64,000 bases of DNA, from assembly GCA_019637155.1 (NCBI GenBank), contig JAHBWE010000017.1, forward strand, positions 147,627 through 211,626. Reading direction: 5' to 3'. Positions 11,172 to 59,580 of this stretch are shown here, piece after piece. The notes beneath the pieces are model-generated. The model did no database searches and was not told where the DNA came from. It saw nothing but the letters and a program-made list of their open reading frames with translations. Both the position numbers and the translations under genes were made by a program. This DNA comes from Labilithrix sp. GTDB taxonomy: Bacteria; Myxococcota_A; Polyangia; Polyangiales; Polyangiaceae. The first letter of the stretch is position 1; every line of letters begins with the position of its first letter.

Positions 11172-11762
11172 TCAGGTGAGGCGCATGACGCCGTCTACAT
11201 GGGTCATCCCCTCGTAGATCGAGTCGACCTCCAGTCGAGCGTCGACCGAACGCAACACCAAGGTCTCGCCGCGGGCGGCGTAGGTGGTCGTCCACGTCCC
11301 ATCGGGATTGCGGACATGACTCTCGATGAGGGGGTCCTGGTGCGAGACGAGGACGTACTCCTTGAGGCTCGTCAGCGACCGATAGTGATCGAACTTCTTC
11401 CCACGATCGTAAGCCTCCGTGCTCTCCGACAAGACCTCGACGAGGAGGATCGGGTTGGTGACCGACTCGGGGTCTTCGGCGTCGGTCTCGAGCTTGCCGC
11501 ACACCACGAACCCGTCCGGATAGGTTCCTTTCCCCGACGGGGTGCGCACGCGGATGTCTGGCCCCTCGACCACGCAGTCGCGTCCACTGGAGAGAGAACC
11601 CTTGATGGCGTCGCGAACGCGGGTGCCGAGCCTTCCATGCGCGATCGACCCACCCGACATGGCGAAGATCTCGCCGTCGAAGAACTCGTGCTTCGTCTCG
11701 CTCGTCCCTTCGCGCCTCGCGTACTCGGCGTAACTCAACTCGAGTTTCGGAGCCGACTGCAT
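11172..11762 (-). CDS. Uma2 family endonuclease (DUF820)
   Basis: MQSAPKLELSYAEYARREGTSETKHEFFDGEIFAMSGGSIAHGRLG...NPILLVEVLSESTEAYDRGKKFDHYRSLTSLKEYVLV is a characteristic Uma2 signature. I trimmed the start to the ATG at 11762. Confidence 0.85.
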   Translation of the reverse strand: MQSAPKLELSYAEYARREGTSETKHEFFDGEIFAMSGGSIAHGRLGTRVRDAIKGSLSSGRDCVVEGPDIRVRTPSGKGTYPDGFVVCGKLETDAEDPESVTNPILLVEVLSESTEAYDRGKKFDHYRSLTSLKEYVLVSHQDPLIESHVRNPDGTWTTTYAARGETLVLRSVDARLEVDSIYEGMTHVDGVMRLT

Positions 11763-11866
11763 GGCGGGGAGCCTAGCACATGGCCCTGGTGCGGAAGCTC
11801 CCTGCCGCCGTCGCAGCGCGCGCGTACGCGAAGCTCCAGCACCCTCGCGGCGCCCTCTTCGCCGCA

Positions 11867-12745
11867 TCAGCCTCGGACGTTGACCTCGGCCTGGGTCGTC
11901 CAGGCGTTCGCGCCGTCGAGCCGCGCGTCGAGCGCGCGGACGTCGACGCCGTTCTTCGGATCGCGCGCGAACACGTACGCGTCGAACCCCTCACGGAAGG
12001 CGGCGTCGTCCGCGTAGGACGCGCGGATCTTGGGGTGCGCGGCGAGGAAGGCCTCCTTCGAGACACCCGCGTCGGCGAAGTCACGTCCGGCGATCATCCC
12101 GATGTCGGCGCGGTGCTGGAGCGCCGCGAGCCCCTTCGGATCGCTCATCAGCCGCTCGGTCATGCGAAACGCCTCGGTGTTCGGTCCGCGCGAGACGCCG
12201 GGGAGCTCCTTGAACCGCGCGTCCTTGAACCCGGGCGGCAGGTTCAGCGCGCCGAGGAGACCGACGTGGACGTTCTCCCGCGTCACGGCCTCCGCCTGCT
12301 CGGCCCCCTGCGCGTGCGCGGCGTGGAGCTCGTAGAAGCCGAGCCCGAGGGCCACGAAGGGCGACGCCACGTCGAGCGCGAGCGGGAGGTGAGCCCCCGC
12401 GATCCCGGCGCCGTCCGCGACGACCTCCACCAGGCCGCCGAAGCCGTCCACCCCGACGTGCGCGTGGTGCTCCGCGGAGAGCTCGCGCTGCGTCTTGTCG
12501 CGTCCGTGCACGTCGACGCGGACGCCGAGGTCGCGGCGAAGCACCTGGTTCGTCCCCTCGGTACGATCGAGGTCGGCCGCCTCCGCGTCGGTGAAGTGCC
12601 TTGGTCCGAGCGTCTCCTCGCTGCGGATCGTCGTCTTCTTGTCGATGCCTCGAGGGGCGGGCTTGTGGAGCTCGCCGGGCGGGAGCGTCTCTTCGCTGCT
12701 GATCTCGAGGTACTTGCGGCCACGAACCTGGGTGACGTCGGACAT
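11867..12745 (-). CDS. Hypothetical protein
   Basis: 292-aa ORF with high GC3 and non-repetitive composition (contains EHHAHVGVDGFGG). I recognise no confident family. Confidence 0.5.
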   Translation of the reverse strand: MSDVTQVRGRKYLEISSEETLPPGELHKPAPRGIDKKTTIRSEETLGPRHFTDAEAADLDRTEGTNQVLRRDLGVRVDVHGRDKTQRELSAEHHAHVGVDGFGGLVEVVADGAGIAGAHLPLALDVASPFVALGLGFYELHAAHAQGAEQAEAVTRENVHVGLLGALNLPPGFKDARFKELPGVSRGPNTEAFRMTERLMSDPKGLAALQHRADIGMIAGRDFADAGVSKEAFLAAHPKIRASYADDAAFREGFDAYVFARDPKNGVDVRALDARLDGANAWTTQAEVNVRG

Positions 12746-47098: not shown

Positions 47099-49228
47099 TT
47101 ACTTCTTCGCTTCGGCGGCGAGCTTGGCCTTGTAGGCCTTGATCATCTCGTCCTGCTCCTGGCGCGGGACGACGGAGTACTTCGCGAACTCCATCGTGAA
47201 CGTGCCCTTGCCCTGCGTGGCAGAGCGGAGGTCGGTCGAGTAGCCGAACATCGTCGTGAGCGGGACCTCGGCGACGACGTTGACGGTGTCGCCCGCGATC
47301 GTCTCGAGGATGACGCCGCGGCGCTGGTTGACCTGACCGACGACGGCGCCCTGGAACTCGGTCGGCGCGTCGATCTCGACCTTCATGATCGGCTCGAGGA
47401 TGGTCGCGCCGGCCTTGTCGTAGGCCTCGCGGAAGCCCATCATCGCGGCGGTCTTGAAGGCCATTTCGGAGGAGTCGACGGCGTGGCTCGCGCCGTCGTT
47501 CACGCAGCAGCGGATGCCGACGACGGGGAAGCCGATGAGGCCGCCCTTCTTGATCGCCTCCTTGAAGCCCTTGTCGCACGAGGGGATGTACTCGCGCGGG
47601 ATCGCGCCGCCGACGACGTCGTCGACGAACTCGTAGGTCTCGACCGCGTCCTGCGGGAGCGGCTCGATGTAGCCCATGACCTTCGCGTACTGACCCGAGC
47701 CGCCGGTCTGCTTCTTGTGCGTGTAGTTCATGTCCGCCTTGCGCGAGATCGACTCGCGGTAGGCGACCTGCGGCTTGCCGGCGATGACCTCGCAGTTGTA
47801 CTCGCGCTTCATGCGCTCGATGTAGATGTCGAGGTGGAGCTCGCCCATGCCCGAGATGATGGTCTGCTGGGACTCTTCATCTTGATGCACGCGGAAGGTG
47901 GGGTCCTCCTTCGTGAAGCGGTTCAGCGCCTTCGAGAAGTTCGTCTCCGCGCCGCGGTCCTTCGGCGCCACCGCGAGCGAGATGACGGCGGCCGGGACGT
48001 GCATCGAGGTCAGGGTGTAGTTGACCTTGCCGTCGGTGAACGTCTCGCCCGAGCTCGCCTCGACGCCGTAGAAGGCGACGATGTCGCCGGCCTCGGCGAC
48101 CTGGATCTCCTCGCGATCGTCCGAGTGCATGCGGAACATGCGCGGGACGCGGACCTTGCGGTTCTCGTTCGAGGTGTTGAAGATCGTGTCGCCGCTCGCG
48201 ACCTTGCCCGAGTAGACGCGGAAGTACGTGAGCTGGCCGTACTTGTCCTGCTGGAGCTTGAACGCGAGGCCGACGAACGGGCCGTTCGGATCGTTCTCGA
48301 GCGCGACCTTCTCCTCGTTCTTGTCCTGGTCGTGCGCCTCGTTTTTGACCTCGGTCGGGCTCGGGAGGTAGTGGAAGACGCCGTCGAGGAGGAGCTGCAC
48401 GCCCTTGTTCTTGAAGGCGGAGCCGCACATGACCGGCGTCATCTTGAGCGCGAGGGTCGCGCGGCGGATCGCGGCGCGGATGTCCTCCACCGAGATCGGC
48501 TCCTCGGCGAGGAACTTCTCGGCGAGCGTGTCGTCGACGTCGGCGACCTTCTCGATGACGTGCTGGCGGCGCGCGTCGGCGGCGTCCTTGTACTCGGCCG
48601 GGATGTCGACCTCCTTGATGATCTCGCCGTCGTTGCCCTCGAAGAAGAAGGCCTTCATCAGGATCGGGTCGATGATGCCCTTGAACTCGTGCTCGGCGCC
48701 CATCGGGAGCTGGATCATCACCGCGTGATGACCGAGCTTCTCGCGCAGCATGTCGGCGACCTTCTCGTAGTTGGCGCCGGGGTTGTCCATCTTGTTGACG
48801 AAGGCGATGCGCGGCACGTGGTACCGCTTCATCTGCTTGTCGACGGTGATCGACTGGCTCTGGACGCCCTTGCCCGAGTCGAGGACGAGGATCGCGCCGT
48901 CGAGGACGCGGAGCGCGCGCTCGACCTCGATCGTGAAGTCGACGTGGCCTGGCGTGTCGATGATGTTGATGTTGATCGGCTCGAGCTGCTTCTGCGAGCC
49001 GGTCCAGACGCAGTACGTGGCGGCGGACTGGATCGTGATGCCCTTCTCACGCTCGAGGTCCATCGAGTCCATCTTGGCGCCGACGCCGTCCTTGCCGCGG
49101 ACCTCGTGAATCTTGTGGATGCGGCCCGTGTAGAAGAGCACGCGCTCGGTCAGCGTCGTCTTGCCGGAGTCGATATGCGCCGAGATGCCGATGTTGCGGA
49201 TTCGTTCGAGGGGGATCTTAGCGGCCAC
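47099..49228 (-). CDS. fusA: Elongation factor G (standalone paralogue)
   Basis: GTG start. G1-G5 GTPase motifs: [18 protein letters not shown]. Domains II-V with the full EF-G signature. There are no rpsL/rpsG/tuf neighbours. Confidence 0.95.
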
Positions 49229-49294
49229 GGAAATTCTCTCTGGTTTCGGTAGGAAGGCGTCCGGGGACCCGGAAGCGGGCGTCCTGTACCACCG

Positions 49295-49972
49295 CTAGGG
49301 CGCGGGCGGAGCGAAAATCACCGGGTAGACCACCACCACGACGCCGCCCTCCGGCTGCGGAAAGCTGAGGTTGGCGAAGCCGCGCAGCACGCACGACTGG
49401 ACCGCCTTGTCGGGGAGGTCGGTCACCGGATCGATCGTCGGGTTCGTCACCGCTCCGCTCCCGTCGATCGTGAGCTTCACCGCGATGCGCCCGGCGAGGT
49501 TGGGGTTCGAGCGGAGCCCGTTCTCGTAGCAGAGACGGAAGCGCCCGAAGTTCTGGCGCACGATGCGCTGGATGACCTCCGGCGGAAGCCGGCCCGTGAC
49601 CGTGACCGCGCCGTGGCGAAGCGTGGGCGCCTTCGTGTTCGATGGAACGGGGCCGCCCGAGCCGGTGCCGGGGATGCCGGGGTCGAGCGACGACGACGAC
49701 GATGAAGGCGCGGCTCCGCTCGACGAGTCGACGAAACCTCCCGGCGACGGCGGCGTGCAGAGCGGATCGCCGTGCGGGCACGGCAGCGCGCGCGGCTCGG
49801 CCGTCGGCTCGGGTGCGGGTGCGGGCGGCGGCGTTGACGGTGATGGTGCGGGCGATGGTGCGGGCGCGGGGGCGGGGGCGTTCGACGGCGGGACCACGAC
49901 GGCGGGCGGCGGCGGATCGCTCGCGCACGCGGCGAGGGCGGAGAGGAAGAAGGAGAGGCGCGGCGACGGCAT
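49295..49972 (-). CDS. Lipoprotein with AgmX/PglI C-terminal (TonB-C-like) domain
   Basis: Lipobox: LSFFLSALAAC. Pro/Ala/Ser-rich linker. LPPEVIQRIVRQNFGRFRLCYENGLRSNPNLAGRIAVKLTIDGSGAVTNP...VQSCVLRGF is about 70% identical to the domain in gene 1067..5857. I trimmed the start to the ATG at 49972. Confidence 0.75.
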   Translation of the reverse strand: MPSPRLSFFLSALAACASDPPPPAVVVPPSNAPAPAPAPSPAPSPSTPPPAPAPEPTAEPRALPCPHGDPLCTPPSPGGFVDSSSGAAPSSSSSSLDPGIPGTGSGGPVPSNTKAPTLRHGAVTVTGRLPPEVIQRIVRQNFGRFRLCYENGLRSNPNLAGRIAVKLTIDGSGAVTNPTIDPVTDLPDKAVQSCVLRGFANLSFPQPEGGVVVVVYPVIFAPPAP

Positions 49973-50138
49973 CGAGCGAGGGTAGAAACATCGAGATTTC
50001 CGGGCGATACCAAATCGTGTGGACAATGTCGCAGGGTGTGCGAAACCCCATGACGCCATGCGTCTTCTCCGCGTCCTTCCTCTACTTCTTCCGACCGCGC
50101 TCGCGGGCGCGAACCATCGCTTCTCCTTCTGAGGCCGC

Positions 50139-52205
50139 ATGCGCGTCGCGCTCGTCTACCCGCCGACCTGCGATCCGACCGCGCCGTACCTCGCGGTGCC
50201 GATGCTCACGGGGTTCCTCCGCGCCCACGGCGTGGAGGTGCTGCCGATCGACGCGAACATCGAGGCGTTCGATCGGCTCCTCGGCCCGGAGTCGCTCGGC
50301 GCGCTCCGCGATCGCCTCGAAGCGCGGCTCCGCGAGCTCGACGCCCGCCGCTCGCTCACGCACGTCGAGCAGCTCGAGTACGCCGCGCTCGTGCGCGCTC
50401 GCGGCGAAGCCCACGCCGTGCCCGACGGCATCGCGCGCGCGAAGGACACGCTCCGCGACGAAGCCCGCTTCCACGATCCCGACGCGTACGCCGCCGCGGT
50501 CGCGACGATCGACGCCGCGCTCCGCGTCGTCTCCGCCGTTCACCATCCGCTCCACCTCGACTTCACCGCGTACCGGACGCCGTTCGGGCTCACGACGATG
50601 GACGAGATCGCCCGCGCCGCGACGCCGGACGCCGATCCGTTCGACGACTACGTCACGAACGTCCTCGTTCCGCGCCTCGCGGCCGCGGAGGTGGGGCTCG
50701 TCGGGCTCTCGGTGTGCTTCCCGGGGCAGCTCCAGCCCGCCTACGCGTTCGCGCTCAAGATCAAGCGCGCGCTCCCCCACGTCCACGTCACGTGCGGCGG
50801 CCCCGGCGTCACGCAGATGCTCATCCGCCTCGAAGGCCGCCGCCTCGCGGGCGCGCTCGGCCCGTTCGACACGGCGTGCGTGTACGAAGGCGAGCACACG
50901 CTCCTCGCCCTCGTCCGCGCGCTGGAGCAGGACAAGCCGCTCCGCGAGTGCACGAACGTCGTCGTCCGCGATCGCCTGATGGGCGCGCGCTGGCTCGCCG
51001 GGCACGGCATGGAAGACCTGAAGGCGCTGCCGCCGCCGGACTTCGACGGCCTCCCGCTCGATCGCTACCTCTCGCCGCGCCTCGTCCTCCCCTACGACCC
51101 CACGCGCGGCTGCTATTGGGGCAAATGCACCTTTTGCCATTACGGCCTCGCCGAGATCGGGACTGCCGCTTATCGCGAGCGCGACGTCGCCGCGATTACC
51201 GATCATCTCCGCGCCCTCGCGACGAAACACGGCACGCGCCATTTCTATTTTTCGCAGGACTCCGTCGCGCCGAAGACGCTGATCAAGCTCGCGCAGGCGA
51301 TCGTCGACGCCGGCCTCGACGTCCGCTGGGCGACGGACCTGAAGCCGGAGAAGTACCTCACGCAGGAGCGCGCCGACGTCCTCCGCCGCGCCGGCGCGGT
51401 CGCGTGTGCGCTCGGCGTCGAGTCGGGCTCGCCGCGCGTGCTGAAGCTGATCGACAAGGGCGCCCCGATCGAGGTCGTCTCCGACGTGGTCGATCGCCTC
51501 GGCGCCGCCGGCATCGCGCCGGAGGCGATGTGCTTCACCGAGTTCCCGACCGAGACACACGAGGAGGCGCTCGACACGCTCGACTTCATCGACGAGCGGC
51601 GCGACCGCCTCGCGGTGTACATCGTCGGCGAGTTCGGCCTCACCCACGGCTCGCTCGTCGCGCAGGACCCGCGCCGCTTCGGCATCCGCGAGACGTGGGA
51701 GCTCGAGGGAGACCAGCTCGGCCTCGGCCTCTTCTTCGCGCCGGAGCATCCGTGGAAGACGGACGACGAGCGCGCCGACGTCGACGATCGGCTCGCCGAG
51801 CTCTCGTCCGGCTGGCTCCTCCGCGCGTATCCGTGGGCGGGAGCGGTGTCGACCGCGCACACGATCCTCTACTACGACCGCTTCGGCCCCACCGTCTTCC
51901 GCGACCTCGCCGCGCGCGGCGTGCGCGAGGAGGTCCTCGGCTCGAAGCGCCCGTTCGAGGCGAGCCTCCGCTTCGATCCGCGCGCCTGCGAGCGCGCGGA
52001 GCAACGCGACGGCGCGATCTGGGCGGAGCTCGTGAACGATCGCCGCGTCGTCGGTCGCGCGCCCTACGAGGAGCTCGCCGCGCGCGCGCCGGCGCTGCGT
52101 CCGAAGCCGCTGCGCCTCTTCTTCTCGTTCTCCGCCGACGGCGGCGCCCCGACCGTGGTCAAGGGGCGCCGCCCGTCCCACGCGGCGAACGCGACGGGGA
52201 CGTGA
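50139..52205 (+). CDS. B12-binding domain-containing radical SAM protein
   Basis: N-terminal cobalamin-binding fold: MRVALVYPPT...LTGFLRAHGVEVLPIDAN. Radical SAM cluster motif: RGCYWGKCTFCHY (Cx4Cx2C). C-terminal extension of about 150 aa. RBS GAGG 5 nt upstream. Confidence 0.85.
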   Translation: MRVALVYPPTCDPTAPYLAVPMLTGFLRAHGVEVLPIDANIEAFDRLLGPESLGALRDRLEARLRELDARRSLTHVEQLEYAALVRARGEAHAVPDGIARAKDTLRDEARFHDPDAYAAAVATIDAALRVVSAVHHPLHLDFTAYRTPFGLTTMDEIARAATPDADPFDDYVTNVLVPRLAAAEVGLVGLSVCFPGQLQPAYAFALKIKRALPHVHVTCGGPGVTQMLIRLEGRRLAGALGPFDTACVYEGEHTLLALVRALEQDKPLRECTNVVVRDRLMGARWLAGHGMEDLKALPPPDFDGLPLDRYLSPRLVLPYDPTRGCYWGKCTFCHYGLAEIGTAAYRERDVAAITDHLRALATKHGTRHFYFSQDSVAPKTLIKLAQAIVDAGLDVRWATDLKPEKYLTQERADVLRRAGAVACALGVESGSPRVLKLIDKGAPIEVVSDVVDRLGAAGIAPEAMCFTEFPTETHEEALDTLDFIDERRDRLAVYIVGEFGLTHGSLVAQDPRRFGIRETWELEGDQLGLGLFFAPEHPWKTDDERADVDDRLAELSSGWLLRAYPWAGAVSTAHTILYYDRFGPTVFRDLAARGVREEVLGSKRPFEASLRFDPRACERAEQRDGAIWAELVNDRRVVGRAPYEELAARAPALRPKPLRLFFSFSADGGAPTVVKGRRPSHAANATGT

Positions 52206-52217
52206 GCCTCAGCTCGC

Positions 52218-53123
52218 TCAGCTCGCGAGGACGAGCACGAGCACGAGGAGGAACGTGATCGCGGTGGAGCCGACGACCGCGATCAGCGTCGAGCGCCCGA
52301 TCGGCTGCGGCGGCGGCGGCTGGCGGACGGGGCGAGCGAGCGCCCAGACGAGCGCGCCGAGCGCGATGACGAGGAGGACCTTGTCGATCGGGAACGGCGG
52401 CGCGACGTGCCTCTCCGCCGCGATCCGCTCCGCCTCGACCGCCACGCCGCGCATCCAGAGATCGGTGCGAATCGCCCACTCGATCCGAAACGCGATGAAG
52501 TAGAGAACACCGGCGATCCCCAGCGTCCCCGCCAGCTGCCCCACCGTGCGCAGCCGGCTCCGCGATCCGAAATGCGCGCGGAACGCGTCGATCGCCGCCC
52601 GCGCCGACAGCACCGCCGCGACCGCATAAGCGATCAGCGCCGGGACCCACGCGAGCCAATGCACGCCGCGCGCCCCGAGCCACCGCGCGGTGCGGCCGGG
52701 ATCGTAGAGGTCGTGAAAGCCACCGTTGACGGCATATCCGAGTTGCCCGATGAGGAAGAAGAAGGCGACGAGCGCGAGGAGCAGCTTCGGCATCGGCGCG
52801 AGCCCGGGCCGGCGCCGGAGGTAGAGCCCCGCCGCGAGCCCCACCGCGCTCGTCACCGCGAGCCCGGCCCAATCGCAGAGGATGACCCGCTCGAACGTCC
52901 ATCGGTCGCAGATCACGCGGTGCACCTGCCCGTGCCCGAAGAACGTCAGCGCATACGCGTCAATCCCGCACCCGAGGACCACCGCGACGAGCGCGTGCCC
53001 GGCGAACTCGTGCAGCAGGAGCCCGACCGCGTGCATGGTAAATCCCCACGCGAAGAACAAAGCGATCGGCGCCACCCAACGCATCGACCACCCTCGCTCG
53101 CCGTTCGTCTTCTCCAACGCCAC
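52218..53123 (-). CDS. Polytopic membrane protein with HEFAGH (HExxxH) putative metal-binding motif
   Basis: Seven to eight TM helices. LLLHEFAGHALVAVVLG lies inside the first helices, reminiscent of intramembrane metalloproteases such as M50/S2P (HEFGH), but with one extra residue. Confidence 0.6.
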   Translation of the reverse strand: MALEKTNGERGWSMRWVAPIALFFAWGFTMHAVGLLLHEFAGHALVAVVLGCGIDAYALTFFGHGQVHRVICDRWTFERVILCDWAGLAVTSAVGLAAGLYLRRRPGLAPMPKLLLALVAFFFLIGQLGYAVNGGFHDLYDPGRTARWLGARGVHWLAWVPALIAYAVAAVLSARAAIDAFRAHFGSRSRLRTVGQLAGTLGIAGVLYFIAFRIEWAIRTDLWMRGVAVEAERIAAERHVAPPFPIDKVLLVIALGALVWALARPVRQPPPPQPIGRSTLIAVVGSTAITFLLVLVLVLAS

Positions 53124-53133
53124 GAGCGTACCG

Positions 53134-53736
53134 CTACATGTCGACGTACGAGGTGCGGTTCAGATCGTGAAACTGCATCCCGAAGTGATCGAGGAGCTCC
53201 TCGAACACCTTGAAGCCGTTCTTCGTGATGAACTGAAGCTCGTTCTCGTGAATCGGGACGAGCTGGAGGAACCACAGCCGCTTGTCCGCGACGTCGGCTT
53301 TGTAAAAGTCGCGCTGCCACAGATACGGATATACGACGAGCGCGTGGGGCATGCGGCTCGCGGGGGCGCCGAGCCCTGCGTGCGCGACCGCGTGCTGGTA
53401 CACGGTCCCGGGCTTCGGCAATTGGTTGCTCGTGACGACGCTGTCGGCGACGAACACCTGAATGCGCTCGAAGCTCCAGTCGTCCGTGCGGTACCCCTGA
53501 ATCAGCTCGATGCGGTCCGGGAAGTTGCTCGTCTCGAACGACTCGTGGGCGAGCCCATAAGACAGCGCGGTCCTGAACCCGGGCGACGGATACCCGTCGA
53601 CCCGCTGGATGCCGAGCTTTCGCGCCGGATCCCCCGGGAGGGGATGGTTGGCATACGTGATCGGAAAACGCCCTTTGACGGGCAGCTCGAGCTGGTCCGC
53701 CACTGCATCCATCTCTTGAGCCGTCAGTCGAGCCAT
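53134..53736 (-). CDS. Hypothetical cytoplasmic protein (possibly SUFU-like fold)
   Basis: 200-aa ORF with high GC3, 10 nt downstream of the membrane protein gene on the same strand. I have no confident family assignment. Confidence 0.5.
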   Translation of the reverse strand: MARLTAQEMDAVADQLELPVKGRFPITYANHPLPGDPARKLGIQRVDGYPSPGFRTALSYGLAHESFETSNFPDRIELIQGYRTDDWSFERIQVFVADSVVTSNQLPKPGTVYQHAVAHAGLGAPASRMPHALVVYPYLWQRDFYKADVADKRLWFLQLVPIHENELQFITKNGFKVFEELLDHFGMQFHDLNRTSYVDM

Positions 53737-53809
53737 CGATAGGTAAACCTCTGGTGCCGCATCCTAGCATTCGCCGGGCTGGCTTCCCTGGAAGACCGCC
53801 GTAGTCTCG

Positions 53810-54934
53810 GTGGCTGTGCGTGCGGTCGTGGTGGTGCTGATGATGACGGTTGGCTGTCGTGGGACGGCGCCGCCTCCACCTGCGCCTGCGAGCGAGGACG
53901 CTACGCCGGTCGCGACGGCGTCGTCGTCGCCCGAGGCTGTCGTGGTCGCTGATGCAGCGGCGGAGGAGACGCCGCTGCCTTCGCGGGCGCGGCTGCTCGC
54001 GCCGGCGCGTGGCACGGCGGTGCGGGGGTTCGTGGCGATGAGCGGCGGGGCCGGGGCGCACGTGGTGTACGCGGTGCCGGGGCCAGAAGAGGCGGCGGCG
54101 GAGCAGCCCGTCTTGGTGGCGTCGTTGACGAAGATGTGGGTCGCGGTCGCGGTGTTGCGGCTCGCCGCGCGGAAGGAGCTGTCGCTCGACGACGAGGTGC
54201 GCGCGCTGCTGCCCGCGCTCGCGAAGAAGGCCTGGGCCGACAGCACGGTGCGTGAGCTCTTGCACCACGTCTCGCGCGTTCCGGAATTCGACGATCGCGA
54301 CGGATTCTATTCCAAGTCCGACATCGACTTTACCGATCCCGCGCCCGTACTCGCCAAACACATCGGCGCCGGAACGGAGAAACGCGGGGTCTGGAAATAC
54401 CGCAATTCGGAGTTCGCGTTATTGGGCGCGATCTTGCAGGAGCGGCGGGCCAAGCCGGTCGCGAGCGTGCTGGAGGAGGAGGTATTTGCTCCCGCGACGA
54501 TGCGCCATGCCGGCGTCCTCGTGCGCGGCAAGCCGGCCGGTCTCGATCTCGGGCCGATGGGGAGGGTGCGGCCGCACAACTTCTTCACCGCCGGGAACGG
54601 GTACGCGAGCGCGAGCGACCTCCTCGCGTTCTTCGATGCGCTCGACGCCGGGACCTTGCTCGACGAGCCGTCGCGTGCGCTCTTGTTCGAGGCGGACGCG
54701 AAGAACAACCACGCCGCGGCGGGATGTTGGGCATTTCCGTTCGCCGGGGCGGAGGCAGGGCCGACGCTGCTCGTCGAACGTCCCGGCAGCTTCGGGAACG
54801 TCCGCCTCGAGACGCTCTACTTCCCTGCCCTTCATCGCGCGATCGTGCTCTGGTCGCAGGCGCCGGTCGACCTCGGGCGGCCCCGGACGAACGGGAGCAT
54901 CGCGGCGGCGCTGGCGCGGGCGGCGCTGGAGTGA
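53810..54934 (+). CDS. Serine hydrolase / beta-lactamase-family lipoprotein
   Basis: GTG start. Lipobox: VVVLMMTVGC. LVASLTKMW is the SxxK motif; YRNSEF resembles YxN. Confidence 0.8.
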   Translation: MAVRAVVVVLMMTVGCRGTAPPPPAPASEDATPVATASSSPEAVVVADAAAEETPLPSRARLLAPARGTAVRGFVAMSGGAGAHVVYAVPGPEEAAAEQPVLVASLTKMWVAVAVLRLAARKELSLDDEVRALLPALAKKAWADSTVRELLHHVSRVPEFDDRDGFYSKSDIDFTDPAPVLAKHIGAGTEKRGVWKYRNSEFALLGAILQERRAKPVASVLEEEVFAPATMRHAGVLVRGKPAGLDLGPMGRVRPHNFFTAGNGYASASDLLAFFDALDAGTLLDEPSRALLFEADAKNNHAAAGCWAFPFAGAEAGPTLLVERPGSFGNVRLETLYFPALHRAIVLWSQAPVDLGRPRTNGSIAAALARAALE

Positions 54935-54935
54935 G

Positions 54936-56567
54936 TCACTCCTGGAACGCGGTCACGATGCGCCCCACCGCGTCGCGCGAGACCGGGCGCTCGAGGATGC
55001 GCGGCCGGCGGCTCGGCGGAGCGGACGGCGGCATCGCGTCGGGTCCGACGATGAGCACGGTGCGGCTCTTCAGCGCCGGCTGGAGCCGCCAGAGGACGCG
55101 GTAGAACGGCTCGCCTTCGCCGCGCATCGAGGCGCTCACGACCAGGACGTCGACCGCGCGCGTCACCACGTGCTCGAACGCCTCCATCGTCGTCGACGCG
55201 AGCGCGATGTCGGCGTGCGGATGCGCCGCCGACGCGGAGAAGAGGATCTTCGTCGACGTGTCGTCGTCCACCACGAGCACGGCGAGGCGGCGGTACGCGA
55301 CCTTCCGCGCCTTCGACGGCGGGCCCTCCGTCGCGGCGGCAGAGACGTCGGCGACGGCCACCTGCGCCGCGGCCGGTGGATACGCGCGCACGACGACGCG
55401 TCGGACCGCGGCCTGCTCGAGCGGCAGCGCGAGGACGGGGCTCTCGCGGCCGATCTTCGCGAGCTCCTCCGCGACGAAGGCGGCGTCGAGCGCGGGGACG
55501 AGCACGACGACGCGATCGGCCGCGAGCATGTCGATACGCGCGAGCGACGCGAGGAACCCGGTCGGATGGAGCGCCGACGACGCGCTGCACACGACGAGAT
55601 GGAATCGCTCCGCGAGCACACGCTCCGCCGCGTCGTCCGCCGCCGCGACGAGGAGCTCGCCCGCGGCGCCGCCGAGCGGCTCGCGAAAGGCGCGCACCTG
55701 CTCGGCGTCGAGATCGACGAAGAGAACGCGAAGCGACTCGTCCACCGTGGCAATCGCAGCGACACGCCGCAACGGCGCCGCCGCTACTGCGGCCGCGGGC
55801 GGCGCGGGCGGGGCCGACGCCGCGGGGGGCGCGGGCGGCGCGGGCGAGGCCGATGAGGTCGTCGCGACGAGCGCGAGGACGCGCTGACGGAGGCGCCAGC
55901 GCAAGAGCGGTCGCTCGAGGATGCGCTCGGTGCCCTGGAGTCGCCATCGCGCGTCGACCAGCTGCGCGCGCGCCGCGACGACGAGCACGCGCTGCGCCGT
56001 CTCGATCGGCAGCGCGGCGAGGAGCCCGTGCTCGCCGAAGGCACGCCCCGCGTCGCAGAGGATCGCGTCGAACGGCCTCGCGCGCGCGAGCCCCACCGCG
56101 GTGAGCACGTCGGAGCAGGTCGCCGGCTCGACGTCGAACACCTCGCGCACGGCCCACAGATCGCGCTCGGTGCCGTCGACGATCAGAAGCTCGAGGGCGC
56201 GCCTGCTCGGCGTGGCCACGCGTTCGGACGACGGCGCCGCGAAGACGAACGGCGGCGCGAGGTCGAACGGCGGGGCTGGCGGAACGCGGGCGCGCGCGCT
56301 CTGGCGATCGGCGTGCGACAGGACCAGCGGCCGGAGACGACCGATCAGCCCCGGCGGCGCGTCGTCATGGAAGAGGAGAATGCGCTCGCACTCGGCGTGC
56401 GTGACGACACGCAGGAGCGCGTAGTGCGCCGACGCGAGGACGCGCGTGCTCTGTTCGACGTGAACGACGAAGTCGAGCGGGACCCGGCCCGGCTCGACCG
56501 CATAGACCCCGCGTACCCCCGCGACCGACTCGAGGACGAACGCGACGTCCATCTGGCGCGGGGTCAT
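54936..56567 (-). CDS. Multi-receiver-like domain protein (several degenerate REC folds)
   Basis: Repeated blocks of the form (I/L/V)4-D...L...A...PFD/V(V/I)L(C/V)D, for example LELLIVDGTERD...PFDAILCDAG and LAVLVVDDDTST...VDVLVVSASM. I trimmed the start to the ATG at 56567. Confidence 0.6.
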   Translation of the reverse strand: MTPRQMDVAFVLESVAGVRGVYAVEPGRVPLDFVVHVEQSTRVLASAHYALLRVVTHAECERILLFHDDAPPGLIGRLRPLVLSHADRQSARARVPPAPPFDLAPPFVFAAPSSERVATPSRRALELLIVDGTERDLWAVREVFDVEPATCSDVLTAVGLARARPFDAILCDAGRAFGEHGLLAALPIETAQRVLVVAARAQLVDARWRLQGTERILERPLLRWRLRQRVLALVATTSSASPAPPAPPAASAPPAPPAAAVAAAPLRRVAAIATVDESLRVLFVDLDAEQVRAFREPLGGAAGELLVAAADDAAERVLAERFHLVVCSASSALHPTGFLASLARIDMLAADRVVVLVPALDAAFVAEELAKIGRESPVLALPLEQAAVRRVVVRAYPPAAAQVAVADVSAAATEGPPSKARKVAYRRLAVLVVDDDTSTKILFSASAAHPHADIALASTTMEAFEHVVTRAVDVLVVSASMRGEGEPFYRVLWRLQPALKSRTVLIVGPDAMPPSAPPSRRPRILERPVSRDAVGRIVTAFQE

Positions 56568-56578
56568 CACGCGATCGT

Positions 56579-56657
56579 AGCCAATTCGTGAAGCCGCGCA
56601 CCGCGGGCGGAAGGGCCCGCCGCGCGCGCATCTCGCGATCGGAGCCAATTCGTGAAG
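56579..56657. promoter_or_regulatory. Pair of direct repeats in the divergent intergenic region (candidate operator for the SARP-like regulator)
   Basis: AGCCAATTCGTGAAG occurs twice with 64-bp periodicity (56579-56593 and 56643-56657), each followed by a similar CGCGG(N)GGAAGGG motif. Confidence 0.35.
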
Positions 56658-56686: not shown

Positions 56687-58564
56687 ATGCTCGAGGCGGT
56701 CGACGAAGCCGAGGCGGTCCGCATCCTCGCGGCCGAGTCGGGCGACGAGGGGGACCTCGCCGACGTCGCCGCGCTCCTCGGCCGCGAGCGCGCGGTGCTC
56801 ACGTGGGCCGGCGGCCTCGCGCGCACGATCGGCTGGGGCCCGCTCCGCCCCCGCCTCGTCGGATGGACGCTGCCCGACGCGCGCTTGCCGTGGCGCGACG
56901 AGGTCGACGACGCGATCGCCGCGCTCTCGCCCGAAGACGCCGCCCTCCTCTCCACCCTCGCCGCGTGCGACGCGCCCTTCGCGTGGGACGTGCTCGAGTC
57001 CGTCGCGCCCGACACGTCGATCGAGAGCATCTGCCGGCTCGAAGGCGCGCGCCTCGTCACCCGCACGACACGCGCTGGCGTCGTCACGCTCGCCGTCCCC
57101 TACTCGGTCCGCGCGTTCCATCACGTCGACGCGAGCCGTACGCCTGCCCCGGACGCAGCAGACCGATGGCTCGACGCGTGGATCCGGCGCGCGATCGAGC
57201 TCCGGCCCGCGAGCTACGGCCCTCGTTCACGCGCGACGCTGGCCGAGCTCGCCGCCGCCATCCCGCTCGCGACGCGCGCGCTCTTCGCCGACGCGCCCGA
57301 GACACGCGCCCGCGGCCTCACGCTCTGGAACGCCGCCTCCGACGCCCTCTTCTTCGCCGACGCCCTCCCCTTCGACGCCCCCGCCTTCACCCGCGCCATC
57401 GAAGTCGCCGACGCCCTCACCGCCAACACCATGACCGCCGACGACGACACGATCGCGCCACCGGGGCCCCAGAAGCGGCCGCACCAGCGGTCGCGCAGCG
57501 ACCCGCCGTCTCCGGCGGGCCGTGTCTGGGGTGGGGGTGGCGGGGGCAACGCCCCCGACGTTGACCGTGTCTGGGGTGGGGGTGGCGGGGGCAACGCCCC
57601 CGACGTTGAGAGCCTGCGCGCGCGGCTCGTCGCGGGGCGCGCGATGCTCGAGCGCGGAGAGCCCGCCGCCGCGAAGGCGCTCGTCGCGGAGGCGATGGCG
57701 CTCGCGACGTCGGACGTGCTCGGCGCCGAGGCGCTGCGCGGGGCGGGCTGGGCGGCGCTCGCGCTCACCGACTTCGACGCCGCCCGCGCGGCGTTCGAAG
57801 AGGCCCGCCGCCTCACGGCCGACGATCCGCGCGGTCAGGCCGACGCCGCGGCGGGGCTCGGGATCCACGCGCTCCTCGGCGGCGAGCCCGACGCCGCGCG
57901 CGCGCTCCTGGAAGAGGCGGTCGCGATCCACGTCGTCATGCGCGACGCGCCGCGCGAAGGAGCGGTCCGCGGGATGATGGAGCTCTTGCCCGACGCGCGC
58001 GACGACGCCGCCGACAGCGTCCGGCTCGGGGCGCAGGTCGCCGAGTTCCGCGCGAGCGGGCAGCGCTGGCGTGAGGCGCTCGCCCTCGCCCGGCTCGCGA
58101 TCGCGGCGCGCGCGCGCGGCGACGCCGAGGCCGAACGGAAGCGGCTCCTCGAAGCACGCGCCGCCGCGATGGTGTCGCGGATGCCGGCCTCCACCGTCGT
58201 GCGCGCGATCGTCGAGGCGAGCGAGGCGAGCACCGCCGCGCGGCCGATCGTGGTCGGGCACGACGGACGGAACCTCACCCTGCCGTCGGGCGAGGTGCAC
58301 GACCTCGCGCGTCACGGCCCCGTGCGCCGCGTCTTGTGGGCGCTCGCCGTCGCGCGGACGGAGCGCCCCGGCGCCGCCATCTCCACCCTCGACATGATCG
58401 AGGCGGGCTGGCCCGGCGAGAAGATGCAGCACGAGGCGGCCACGCTGCGCGTCTACACGACGATCCGCCGTCTCCGCGCGCTCGGCCTCTCCGACGCGCT
58501 CGTCACGCGCGACGAAGGCTACCTCATCGATCCCGACGTACCGCTCGCGCTCGCCACCTCCTAG
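56687..58564 (+). CDS. Regulator with TPR-like helical (BTAD-like) region and C-terminal OmpR/PhoB-type winged-helix DNA-binding domain (SARP-like, inverted order)
   Basis: C-terminus: VRRVLWALAVAR...LRVYTTIRRLRALGLSDALVTRDEGYLID, the winged-helix signature. The central region is Ala/Leu-rich and TPR-like. It contains a perfect 45-bp tandem duplication. Confidence 0.6.
   Translation: MLEAVDEAEAVRILAAESGDEGDLADVAALLGRERAVLTWAGGLARTIGWGPLRPRLVGWTLPDARLPWRDEVDDAIAALSPEDAALLSTLAACDAPFAWDVLESVAPDTSIESICRLEGARLVTRTTRAGVVTLAVPYSVRAFHHVDASRTPAPDAADRWLDAWIRRAIELRPASYGPRSRATLAELAAAIPLATRALFADAPETRARGLTLWNAASDALFFADALPFDAPAFTRAIEVADALTANTMTADDDTIAPPGPQKRPHQRSRSDPPSPAGRVWGGGGGGNAPDVDRVWGGGGGGNAPDVESLRARLVAGRAMLERGEPAAAKALVAEAMALATSDVLGAEALRGAGWAALALTDFDAARAAFEEARRLTADDPRGQADAAAGLGIHALLGGEPDAARALLEEAVAIHVVMRDAPREGAVRGMMELLPDARDDAADSVRLGAQVAEFRASGQRWREALALARLAIAARARGDAEAERKRLLEARAAAMVSRMPASTVVRAIVEASEASTAARPIVVGHDGRNLTLPSGEVHDLARHGPVRRVLWALAVARTERPGAAISTLDMIEAGWPGEKMQHEAATLRVYTTIRRLRALGLSDALVTRDEGYLIDPDVPLALATS
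57520..57609 (+). repeat. Perfect 45-bp tandem duplication with G-tracts (GGGGTGGGGGTGGCGGGGG, two copies)
   Basis: ccgtgtctggggtgggggtggcgggggcaacgcccccgacgttga repeated exactly, encoding RVWGGGGGGNAPDV(D/E) twice. Confidence 0.9.
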
Positions 58565-58575
58565 AACGTCAGCCC

Positions 58576-58608
58576 GTGTCAGTGCCGCCCGCGCTCGCGG
58601 CGTGACAC
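58576..58608 (+). terminator. GC-rich inverted repeat after the regulator gene
   Basis: GTGTCAGTGCCGC-ccgcgctc-GCGGCGTGACAC (12/13 complementary). It has no U-tract, so it could be a terminator or attenuator hairpin. Confidence 0.3.
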
Positions 58609-58617
58609 ACGATCGTC

Positions 58618-59580
58618 ATGCAGAGCGCGCTCATCGCCGGCGCCGGCGCCTCCGGGTTCCTCCACGCCCTCGCGCTCCGCTCGGCCGGCGTCCGCATCGC
58701 GGCCGTCTTCGATCCCGACCGCGCGAGCGCACGGAACCTCGTCGAGCTCGTCGGCGGTGAGCCGTGCACCTCGCTCGATCGAGCGCTCCGTCACGACGCC
58801 GCGATCGCCGCGGTGTGCAGCCCCCCGATCCACCACGTCGCGCAAGCCGCCGCGCTCGCCGACGGGCGCCGCCTCGTCTTCGTCGAGAAGCCGGTCGCGC
58901 TCTCGAACGAGGAGCTCGAGCGTCTGCGGACGCTGCCGCGCGTCGTGCCGATCGTGCAGTGGCGATCGGGGCGGAGCGCGTCGGAGCTGCGCGCCGCGAT
59001 CGAGGCCGGCGTGTTCGGCGCGCGACCGCGCATCCACTGCGAGCTCCGGCTCTGGCGCGACGCCGCCTACTTCGCGCGCCGCGACGCCGCGCGCTGGGGC
59101 TGCGGCGCGATGCTGTCGATCGGCATTCACGCGCTCGACCTCGTGCTCTGGATCGCGAACCGCCGCGTCGTCGCGTCGCGCGGGCGCGAAGGGTTCGGCC
59201 GCCCTACGATCGACGTCGCGACCGCGGGCGAGATCGCGCTCGAGCTCGAGGGCGGCGCGTCGGCGCGGGTCGCGATCACGCTCGACGAGCCGCGCGCGTG
59301 CGACGTGCGCCTCGCGGTCGAAGGCGACGGCACGACCGCCTACCTCCACGCGGCGGAGGCGGACCCGACCGGCACGCCGCTCTCGTGGCGCGGCCCGCGC
59401 GCGGTCCGCTACCCCGCCCCCGCCGGCGCGCTCGGGAGCCCGCTCCTCGTGCCGTTCATCCACGAGGCGCTCGCCGCGCCGAGGCCGCTCGCGATCGACG
59501 ACGTCGCCGCCGCGCACCGGCTCGTGTTCGCGCTCACTTCCCGGTCAGCGCCGACAGACCTTTGCCGCCGACCGGCGTGA
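58618..59580 (+). CDS. Gfo/Idh/MocA family oxidoreductase
   Basis: MQSALIAGAGASGFLHALALRSAGVRIAAVFD is the Rossmann N-terminus; EKP is the Gfo/Idh/MocA motif. Confidence 0.8.
   Translation: MQSALIAGAGASGFLHALALRSAGVRIAAVFDPDRASARNLVELVGGEPCTSLDRALRHDAAIAAVCSPPIHHVAQAAALADGRRLVFVEKPVALSNEELERLRTLPRVVPIVQWRSGRSASELRAAIEAGVFGARPRIHCELRLWRDAAYFARRDAARWGCGAMLSIGIHALDLVLWIANRRVVASRGREGFGRPTIDVATAGEIALELEGGASARVAITLDEPRACDVRLAVEGDGTTAYLHAAEADPTGTPLSWRGPRAVRYPAPAGALGSPLLVPFIHEALAAPRPLAIDDVAAAHRLVFALTSRSAPTDLCRRPA

Follow-up and report, generated by a model that had tools for sequence, protein, structure and literature searches.

Likely functional independence of three neighbouring Labilithrix genes encoding a Cx4Cx2C radical SAM enzyme, an HExxGH membrane protein and a SUFU-domain protein

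Introduction

Three kinds of described proteins frame the locus examined here: OxsB as a radical S-adenosylmethionine (SAM) enzyme, the M50 site-2 proteases and the Imm-SuFu immunity proteins. They are the closest described systems to the products of three adjacent genes at positions 50,139 to 53,736 of a 64,000-nucleotide stretch of Labilithrix sp. DNA (contig JAHBWE010000017.1; hereafter the window), which encode a B12-type radical SAM enzyme, a polytopic membrane protein with the motif HEFAGH and a 200-residue protein. A first-pass annotation had read the three genes as one cassette and suggested a maturation system for lipids or for products resembling ribosomally synthesized and post-translationally modified peptides (RiPPs). 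Comparison with related genomes leads us to consider it likely that the genes are functionally independent and were joined by local rearrangement in this Labilithrix genome, and that they do not form a three-gene maturation system.

OxsB, an enzyme of oxetanocin A biosynthesis, acts with the HD-domain enzyme OxsA in a biosynthetic cluster, and its cysteine motif has been described as CX4CX2C (PMC9204698). It is the sole PDB sequence match of the radical SAM enzyme of the window (PDB 5UL2, E 0.0011). The aligned region includes the cluster loop, where its C-DYSR-C-TF-C faces C-YWGK-C-TF-C with the same spacing. The first-pass annotation had presented Cx4Cx2C as a departure from the usual Cx3Cx2C; the motif is real but not novel, being already that of OxsB. 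The structural model of the enzyme of the window further resembles OxsB in its radical SAM barrel and in the helical nature of its C-terminal region, and would also include a cobalamin-type Rossmann domain like that of OxsB. The two nevertheless differ, with an identity of only about 20%. The reaction type is not transferable, and OxsB has its partner OxsA whereas the radical SAM gene here has no conserved partner. Matches to TIGR03975 (rSAM_ocin_1, RiPP C-methyltransferases), PhpK and ApyD span both the B12 domain and the radical SAM core, but their scores lie far under the cutoffs, and neither a precursor peptide gene nor phosphinate pathway genes are found near the gene of the window.

The M50 site-2 proteases, such as SpoIVFB, MJ0392 and RseP, share with the membrane protein a metal motif in the first transmembrane helix followed by a beta-hairpin, a sequence profile of about 100 residues and an invariant Asp of putatively equivalent role. 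Their motif is HExxH, whereas the membrane protein and 72 of 72 aligned relatives carry HExxGH, one residue longer. In further contrast to these proteases, the membrane protein is without PDZ or CBS domains and has three to four extra C-terminal helices. The hexapeptide HEXXGH is also known from DPP III (family M49), an active zinc peptidase that is a soluble two-lobe enzyme with a second motif, EEXR(K)AE(D). This hexapeptide is all that the two proteins have in common: the membrane protein is polytopic, with a predicted site-2-protease fold, and has no invariant second Glu motif. The likeness to DPP III raised by the first-pass annotation is thus one of motif alone, and kinship was rejected on the mismatch of fold and second motif.

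The third protein has the PF05076 domain in common with the Imm-SuFu immunity proteins, and like them it is a stand-alone protein of about 200 residues. Genes of this kind are expected directly downstream of a polymorphic toxin gene, but the SUFU gene of the window has no adjacent toxin.

Gene order in the window

The three open reading frames (ORFs) are present at the coordinates first given and are real genes. Their codon-position GC follows the pattern typical of real genes, which is missing from the long overlapping alternative ORFs; in a window of about 72% GC, the third-position value (GC3) reaches 0.935 for the radical SAM gene, 0.911 for the membrane gene and 0.851 for the SUFU gene. 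NCBI proteins of a Labilithrix sp. metagenome-assembled genome (MAG) are identical to all three.

The radical SAM gene (50139-52205, plus strand, 688 residues) and the membrane-protein gene (52218-53123, minus strand, 301 residues from a GTG codon) are convergent. Their junction reads TGA GCCTCAGCTCGC TCA, and the stop codons are separated by 12 nt (52206-52217, read off the sequence), exactly as first described. Judging from NCBI annotation and homologues, translation of the membrane gene probably begins at M14 (53084) and would yield 288 residues. The SUFU-domain gene (53134-53736, minus strand, 200 residues) lies on the same strand, at a distance of 10 nt, or of 49 nt if the M14 start is adopted. 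It had been described as following the membrane gene in the same operon; it is instead located upstream of it, and the radical SAM gene, since it converges on the other two, cannot share their operon. A promoter and terminator scan of positions 49800-54000 returned zero sites.

Gene order across genomes

The membrane gene was followed through seven loci outside the immediate sister genomes, with flanks of up to 10 kb on both sides in five of them, on one side in L004 and on a 5-kb contig in L005. The available flanks of these loci (L002, L003, L004, L005, L012, L013 and L019) contain no radical SAM gene and no SUFU gene. Seen from the radical SAM side, the loci L008, L009/L010, L014 and L015, whose enzymes are 73-78% identical to that of the window, have unrelated neighbours, with no membrane-gene homologue and no neighbour from the cassette of the window. 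In the assembly GCA_018266155.1, the radical SAM orthologue is found on contig 11 and the membrane-gene homologue on contig 22.

Only three loci (L001, L011 and L020) keep both genes nearby, and the membrane proteins there are 63% identical to that of the window. In L011 and L020, a LactB-rhodanese gene, an ORF of about 190 residues and the radical SAM gene read leftward, followed by a divergent set comprising an NMO gene, the membrane gene, an AgmX-like gene and an EF-G gene; L001 has the same layout with an extra 3.4 kb. None of the three carries a SUFU gene, which is unique to the window. Compared with this sister block, the window has lost the NMO gene, the 190-residue ORF and the LactB-rhodanese gene. 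Its membrane gene has changed sides with respect to the radical SAM gene and is preceded by the SUFU gene. The three families also differ in extent and divergence. Over 1000 matches were found for the radical SAM enzyme, 79 for the membrane protein and only 8 for the SUFU protein, and the nearest non-self sequences are 81%, 73% and about 45% identical, respectively.

Judged from gene order, the pattern is that of a chromosomal neighbourhood decaying by rearrangement and not of a selected linkage. The first-pass annotation had itself named a lack of conserved neighbours as evidence against its cassette, and neighbours are indeed not conserved among the loci compared. The radical SAM gene would be a vertically inherited gene that stands alone in the more distant loci.

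Some features of the sister block deserve mention in their own right. The ORF of about 190 residues is conserved in all three genomes and has no Pfam match; it shares the strand of the radical SAM gene and comes immediately after it (L011 4118-4702, L020 6126-6695, L001 2801-3373); both this ORF and the NMO gene are absent from the entire 64-kb window. In L020, a gene for an IS200/Y1-type transposase (11345-12100) lies between the membrane gene and the EF-G gene, and such an element may explain rearrangements in the block.

The radical SAM enzyme

The first-pass annotation was right about the 688-residue enzyme and its C-YWGK-C-TF-C motif. The triad formed by C325, C330 and C333 (codons at 51111-51137, plus strand) is the sole one of its kind in the protein, which contains no Cx3Cx2C anywhere. 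The Radical_SAM domain (PF04055) matches residues 321-484 with 56.3 bits against a cutoff of 29.5 (E 5.8e-15). The N-terminal cobalamin-binding domain, previously called canonical, is less clear in sequence: B12-binding PF02310 remains sub-threshold (28.6 bits against 32.1) and covers residues 176-258 only, and the DxHxxG motif is absent from the protein. The C-terminal extension, estimated earlier at about 150 residues, amounts to about 200 residues past the Pfam radical SAM match. Neither the first 174 nor the last 200 residues of the enzyme gave a meaningful Pfam match, even at E values up to 10.

The AlphaFold2 (AF2) model of the enzyme (pLDDT 75, pTM 0.82) clarifies its affiliation. Helices spanning residues 39-183 separate a first pair of strands (2-6 and 33-37) from the next strand (187-191). 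The class B assignment is secure because the six best PDB neighbours of the model are all class B radical SAM enzymes, namely TsrM (21.1), TokK (17.8), AprD4 (17.4), MgmA (17.4), CysS (16.7) and OxsB (16.5). From this modelled fold, the enzyme appears to be cobalamin-dependent.

None of 15 NCBIfam models reaches its cutoff on this protein. The best scores were obtained with TIGR03975 (94.1 bits against 281.85), PhpK (90.7 against 600) and ApyD (75 against 750); the others include the ladderane model (69.7 against 360), HpnJ (42.5 against 578), BchE (37.5 against 481), BzaD (35.2 against 450) and HpnR (18.6 against 650). Profile classification, suggested at the outset as a check, therefore assigns the enzyme to no curated RiPP, lipid or cofactor family. 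A housekeeping identity as BchE or HpnR was rejected on the same grounds, these scores lying far under the cutoffs.

Homologues were drawn from the best 120 clusters of 1092 matches. Among these 120, an exceptionally well conserved clade of full-length proteins (about 690 residues) at 73-81% identity is distributed in Myxococcota MAGs and metagenomes. The motif CYWGKC[TS]FC is present in 120 of the 120 homologues listed and Cx3Cx2C in none, and C-terminal stretches such as YPWAGAVSTAH and GRRPSH are invariant. As far as profile comparison reaches, this is an uncharacterised clade that attains no curated family, and nothing relevant on B12-binding radical SAM enzymes in myxobacteria was found in the literature. 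As an aside, the segment G-R-R-P-S-H at residues 676-681 (52164-52181) is invariant in 30 homologues, yet it belongs to an extreme C-terminal tail that AF2 models as disordered (pLDDT below 50).

Judging from the motif, C325, C330 and C333 would coordinate a [4Fe-4S] cluster responsible for SAM cleavage, with a cobalamin placed next to the cluster, as the fold implies. In the most likely chemistry, cobalamin would mediate the transfer of a methyl group to a carbon that is not activated, in a substrate conserved among cells of the group. The clade points to an as yet undescribed modification in Myxococcota, one that probably depends on cobalamin.

The HExxGH membrane protein

The HEFAGH motif occupies residues 38-43 (52995-53012, minus strand), in the first of about seven hydrophobic segments, and was correctly described as embedded in a transmembrane helix. 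A word-based search returned 79 relatives, none of them annotated and none below 49% identity. The motif had been taken for the only conserved-looking feature of the protein; in these close relatives, H31, H64, Y130 and D141-P142 are invariant or nearly so, as is HE[FVLM][GA]GH.

A profile search of 1.84 billion representatives extended the family to 147 clusters (at 50% identity), of which 72 were aligned. Invariance across these 72 sequences, which reach down to about 20% identity, is confined to H38, E39, G42, H43, G87, Y130 and D141, and HExxH is found in none of them. Peptidase_M50B matches 25 of the 72 and Peptidase_M50 matches 6; above the gathering threshold stand P0225, P0231 and P0251 for M50B (31.6-33.9 bits against 26) and P0228 and P0238 for M50. 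The membrane protein of the window has no PF13398 match even at E 10, and a permissive Pfam scan of it gave nothing meaningful. Its model contains the site-2-protease membrane core, and the corresponding sequence profile aligns with it over about 100 residues. A beta-hairpin comes after the first transmembrane helix, which holds the metal motif. On the model, the protein has a site-2-protease (M50) fold, and the alignment indicates that HExxGH is a genuine one-residue-insertion variant of the zinc motif. The description as an M50-like protein with one inserted residue holds at the level of homology, because HExxGH is invariant in the 72 relatives and some of them pass the M50B or M50 thresholds. 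The conservation check proposed with that description was passed as well.

The protein would accordingly be placed among divergent zinc metalloproteases of the M50/site-2 type. Invariance and fold together suggest that H38, H43 and D141 hold the zinc and that E39 activates water as general base. D141 (codon 52701-52703, minus strand), just past the third long helix, is predicted as third ligand by its likeness to the Asp of the M50 LDG motif. The extra residue between the Glu and the Gly-His pair would presumably be accommodated as a helix bulge.

This residue could also be read in the opposite manner, as an insertion that breaks the zinc site and leaves a pseudoprotease, a sensor or a metal-binding membrane protein. 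We regard such an inactive protein as rather unlikely, since H, E, G, H and D do not vary at all in 72 sequences at about 20% identity, the hallmark of a catalytic site that has been kept, and since DPP III is active despite its HEXXGH. A role as divergent metalloprotease is preferred.

No conserved anti-sigma or sigma neighbour was found at the membrane-gene loci examined, and the surroundings of a distant HExxGH relative (L018) were uninformative. The searchable literature yielded no description of an HExxGH family resembling site-2 or M50B proteases. With at least 147 clusters (50% identity) in which HExxGH strictly takes the place of HExxH, this family would lend itself to testing the degree of helix distortion that a zinc site within the membrane can tolerate. 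Together with the radical SAM clade, it is a candidate for annotation and follow-up rather than a surprise.

The SUFU-domain protein

The 200-residue protein, left as an unknown partner in the first-pass annotation, is a SUFU-domain protein of toxin-immunity type. PF05076 matches it with 50.9 bits against a cutoff of 25 (E 2.1e-13), and its NCBI name already is SUFU. Of its eight homologues, two of the closest were examined, P0348 and P0354 (loci L016 and L017). Each directly follows an RHS-repeat toxin with a GH-E HNH-nuclease domain at its end, and one of these toxins, that of L017, also shows a PAAR motif. SuFu-superfamily proteins have been proposed as immunity proteins in such an arrangement (Zhang, Iyer and Aravind 2011; PMC3113570).

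Because the two relatives examined directly follow toxins ending in a GH-E nuclease, the gene of the window is likely of the immunity type, and since no GH-E/RHS-type toxin is adjacent to it or anywhere else in the 64-kb window, which also contains no SUFU paralogue, it is orphan here. Domain and context comparisons thus make an orphan Imm-SuFu immunity gene the most likely identity. Proteins of this type would neutralise their targets, GH-E HNH-nuclease toxin domains, through binding.

On other aspects, L016 (1309-5970) and L017 (2-5266) display the same layout, in which the RHS toxin is followed by the SUFU gene and then by a TPR gene of about 200 residues overlapping the SUFU stop; this TPR gene possibly represents a third, conserved part of the toxin system. 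In the window, the SUFU gene and the divergent beta-lactamase-fold hydrolase gene (together 53134-54934) have a GC3 of 0.85-0.86, against 0.91-0.97 in the surrounding genes, which is weakly consistent with a later acquisition or insertion of the pair.

Other possible associations

Other partners could be envisaged for the radical SAM enzyme. A TPR protein and a GFO/IDH/MocA oxidoreductase (56687-59580 in the window) might be its true partners, split off later by four inserted genes, namely the membrane, SUFU, beta-lactamase-fold and 570-residue genes that now lie between. The order in L015 is suggestive: the stop of the radical SAM gene overlaps the start of the TPR gene and the oxidoreductase gene comes next, the same pair being 4.5 kb off in the window. 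L001 and L011 likewise have TPR homologues 1.8-2 kb downstream of their radical SAM genes, and L011 has the oxidoreductase too. The pair is however missing from L008 and L009, and L014 contains only a weak match to the 625-residue TPR gene. The distribution fits synteny by descent, the intervening genes differing in each genome, and we hold a functional partnership to be quite improbable.

The SUFU and membrane genes might instead form a two-gene module, for example one in which the metalloprotease cleaves an incoming toxin or the immunity partner. Their common strand and short gap in the window would suit such a module, as would the location of SUFU homologues in conflict loci. A SUFU gene is nevertheless found in 0 of 11 other membrane-gene loci (available flanks), and M50-like genes are missing from both SUFU loci examined, where the TPR gene of about 200 residues follows instead. 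In the sister genomes, it is the NMO-family gene that stands upstream of the membrane gene as its operon partner. A dedicated module is on these grounds very unlikely.

The gaps adjoining the radical SAM orthologues measure 19-162 bp, too little for a conserved precursor gene, and a crude tblastx comparison of the 800-bp flanks of seven radical SAM loci revealed no conserved small ORF. Strong matches were obtained only between the near-identical sisters L001 and L011; the remaining low-scoring ones were rejected as evidence for precursor peptides, being expected for GC-rich DNA in all frames. The search for precursor ORFs that the first-pass annotation had recommended thus came back negative for the flanks of the radical SAM orthologues.

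The maturation system itself, in which the radical SAM enzyme would modify a lipid or RiPP-like substrate before intramembrane cleavage by the site-2-protease-like protein, with or without the 200-residue protein, can draw on the adjacency of the two genes in the window, on their distance of 1-4.5 kb in L001, L011 and L020 and on best sub-threshold NCBIfam matches to a RiPP C-methyltransferase family and ApyD, but it is highly improbable given that the genes are convergent here and differ in order and orientation in the sister loci, are unlinked in L002, L003, L012, L013 and L019 (membrane side) and in L008, L009, L014 and L015 (radical SAM side), fall on separate contigs in one assembly and belong to families of very unequal size, the radical SAM clade exceeding the membrane family more than tenfold, that TIGR03975 stops at 94 bits against a cutoff of 282, and that the orthologues have neither the intergenic space nor the small ORF for a precursor. 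With the failure of the cassette, there is no new RiPP or lipid maturation system to report.

Functional independence of the three genes is the reading that we retain, and several observations weigh against it. The radical SAM and membrane genes lie within 0-4.5 kb of each other in four close genomes (the window, L001, L011 and L020), and an intergenic region of 38-57 bp separates the radical SAM gene from the divergent NMO-membrane pair in L011 and L020. The SUFU and membrane genes, being on the same strand and 10-49 nt apart, may be co-transcribed. The roles assigned to all three proteins are, moreover, predictions from sequence and models. Because of the proximity in four genomes and the short divergent region in two of them, a link between the radical SAM and membrane genes that is specific to the clade is conceivable. 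We would give only a slim chance to a Labilithrix sub-clade in which the B12-type enzyme modifies a membrane lipid or peptide and the HExxxH intramembrane metalloprotease then processes the product; if true, such cooperation would represent a new kind of maturation pathway.

Surrounding genes

Beyond the SUFU gene, the plus strand carries the gene for the beta-lactamase-fold hydrolase (53810-54934). Next come a 570-residue ORF without Pfam match (54936-56648, minus strand) and, again on the plus strand, the genes for the TPR protein (56687-58564, 625 residues) and the GFO/IDH/MocA oxidoreductase (58618-59580, 320 residues), both identified by Pfam. The 570-residue ORF is strongly coding (GC3 0.909) and has neither a PADLOC match nor a homologue in any related locus. 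PADLOC, applied to six local proteins, gave no defence-system match.

On the other side of the radical SAM gene, the minus strand carries a lipoprotein ORF with an AgmX/PglI C-terminal domain (49295-50140, start probably at 49972) and a gene for an EF-G paralogue (47099-49228). The EF-G paralogue thus lies directly downstream of a GltG-like AgmX/PglI lipoprotein (47099-50140 for the two), outside any str operon, and this pairing is also kept in the sister loci L001, L011 and L020.

Within the 625-residue TPR gene, positions 57520-57609 consist of a perfect 45-nt tandem duplication (2.0 copies, 100% identity). Apparently in frame and very recent, it makes the gene encode RVWGGGGGGNAPDV two times.

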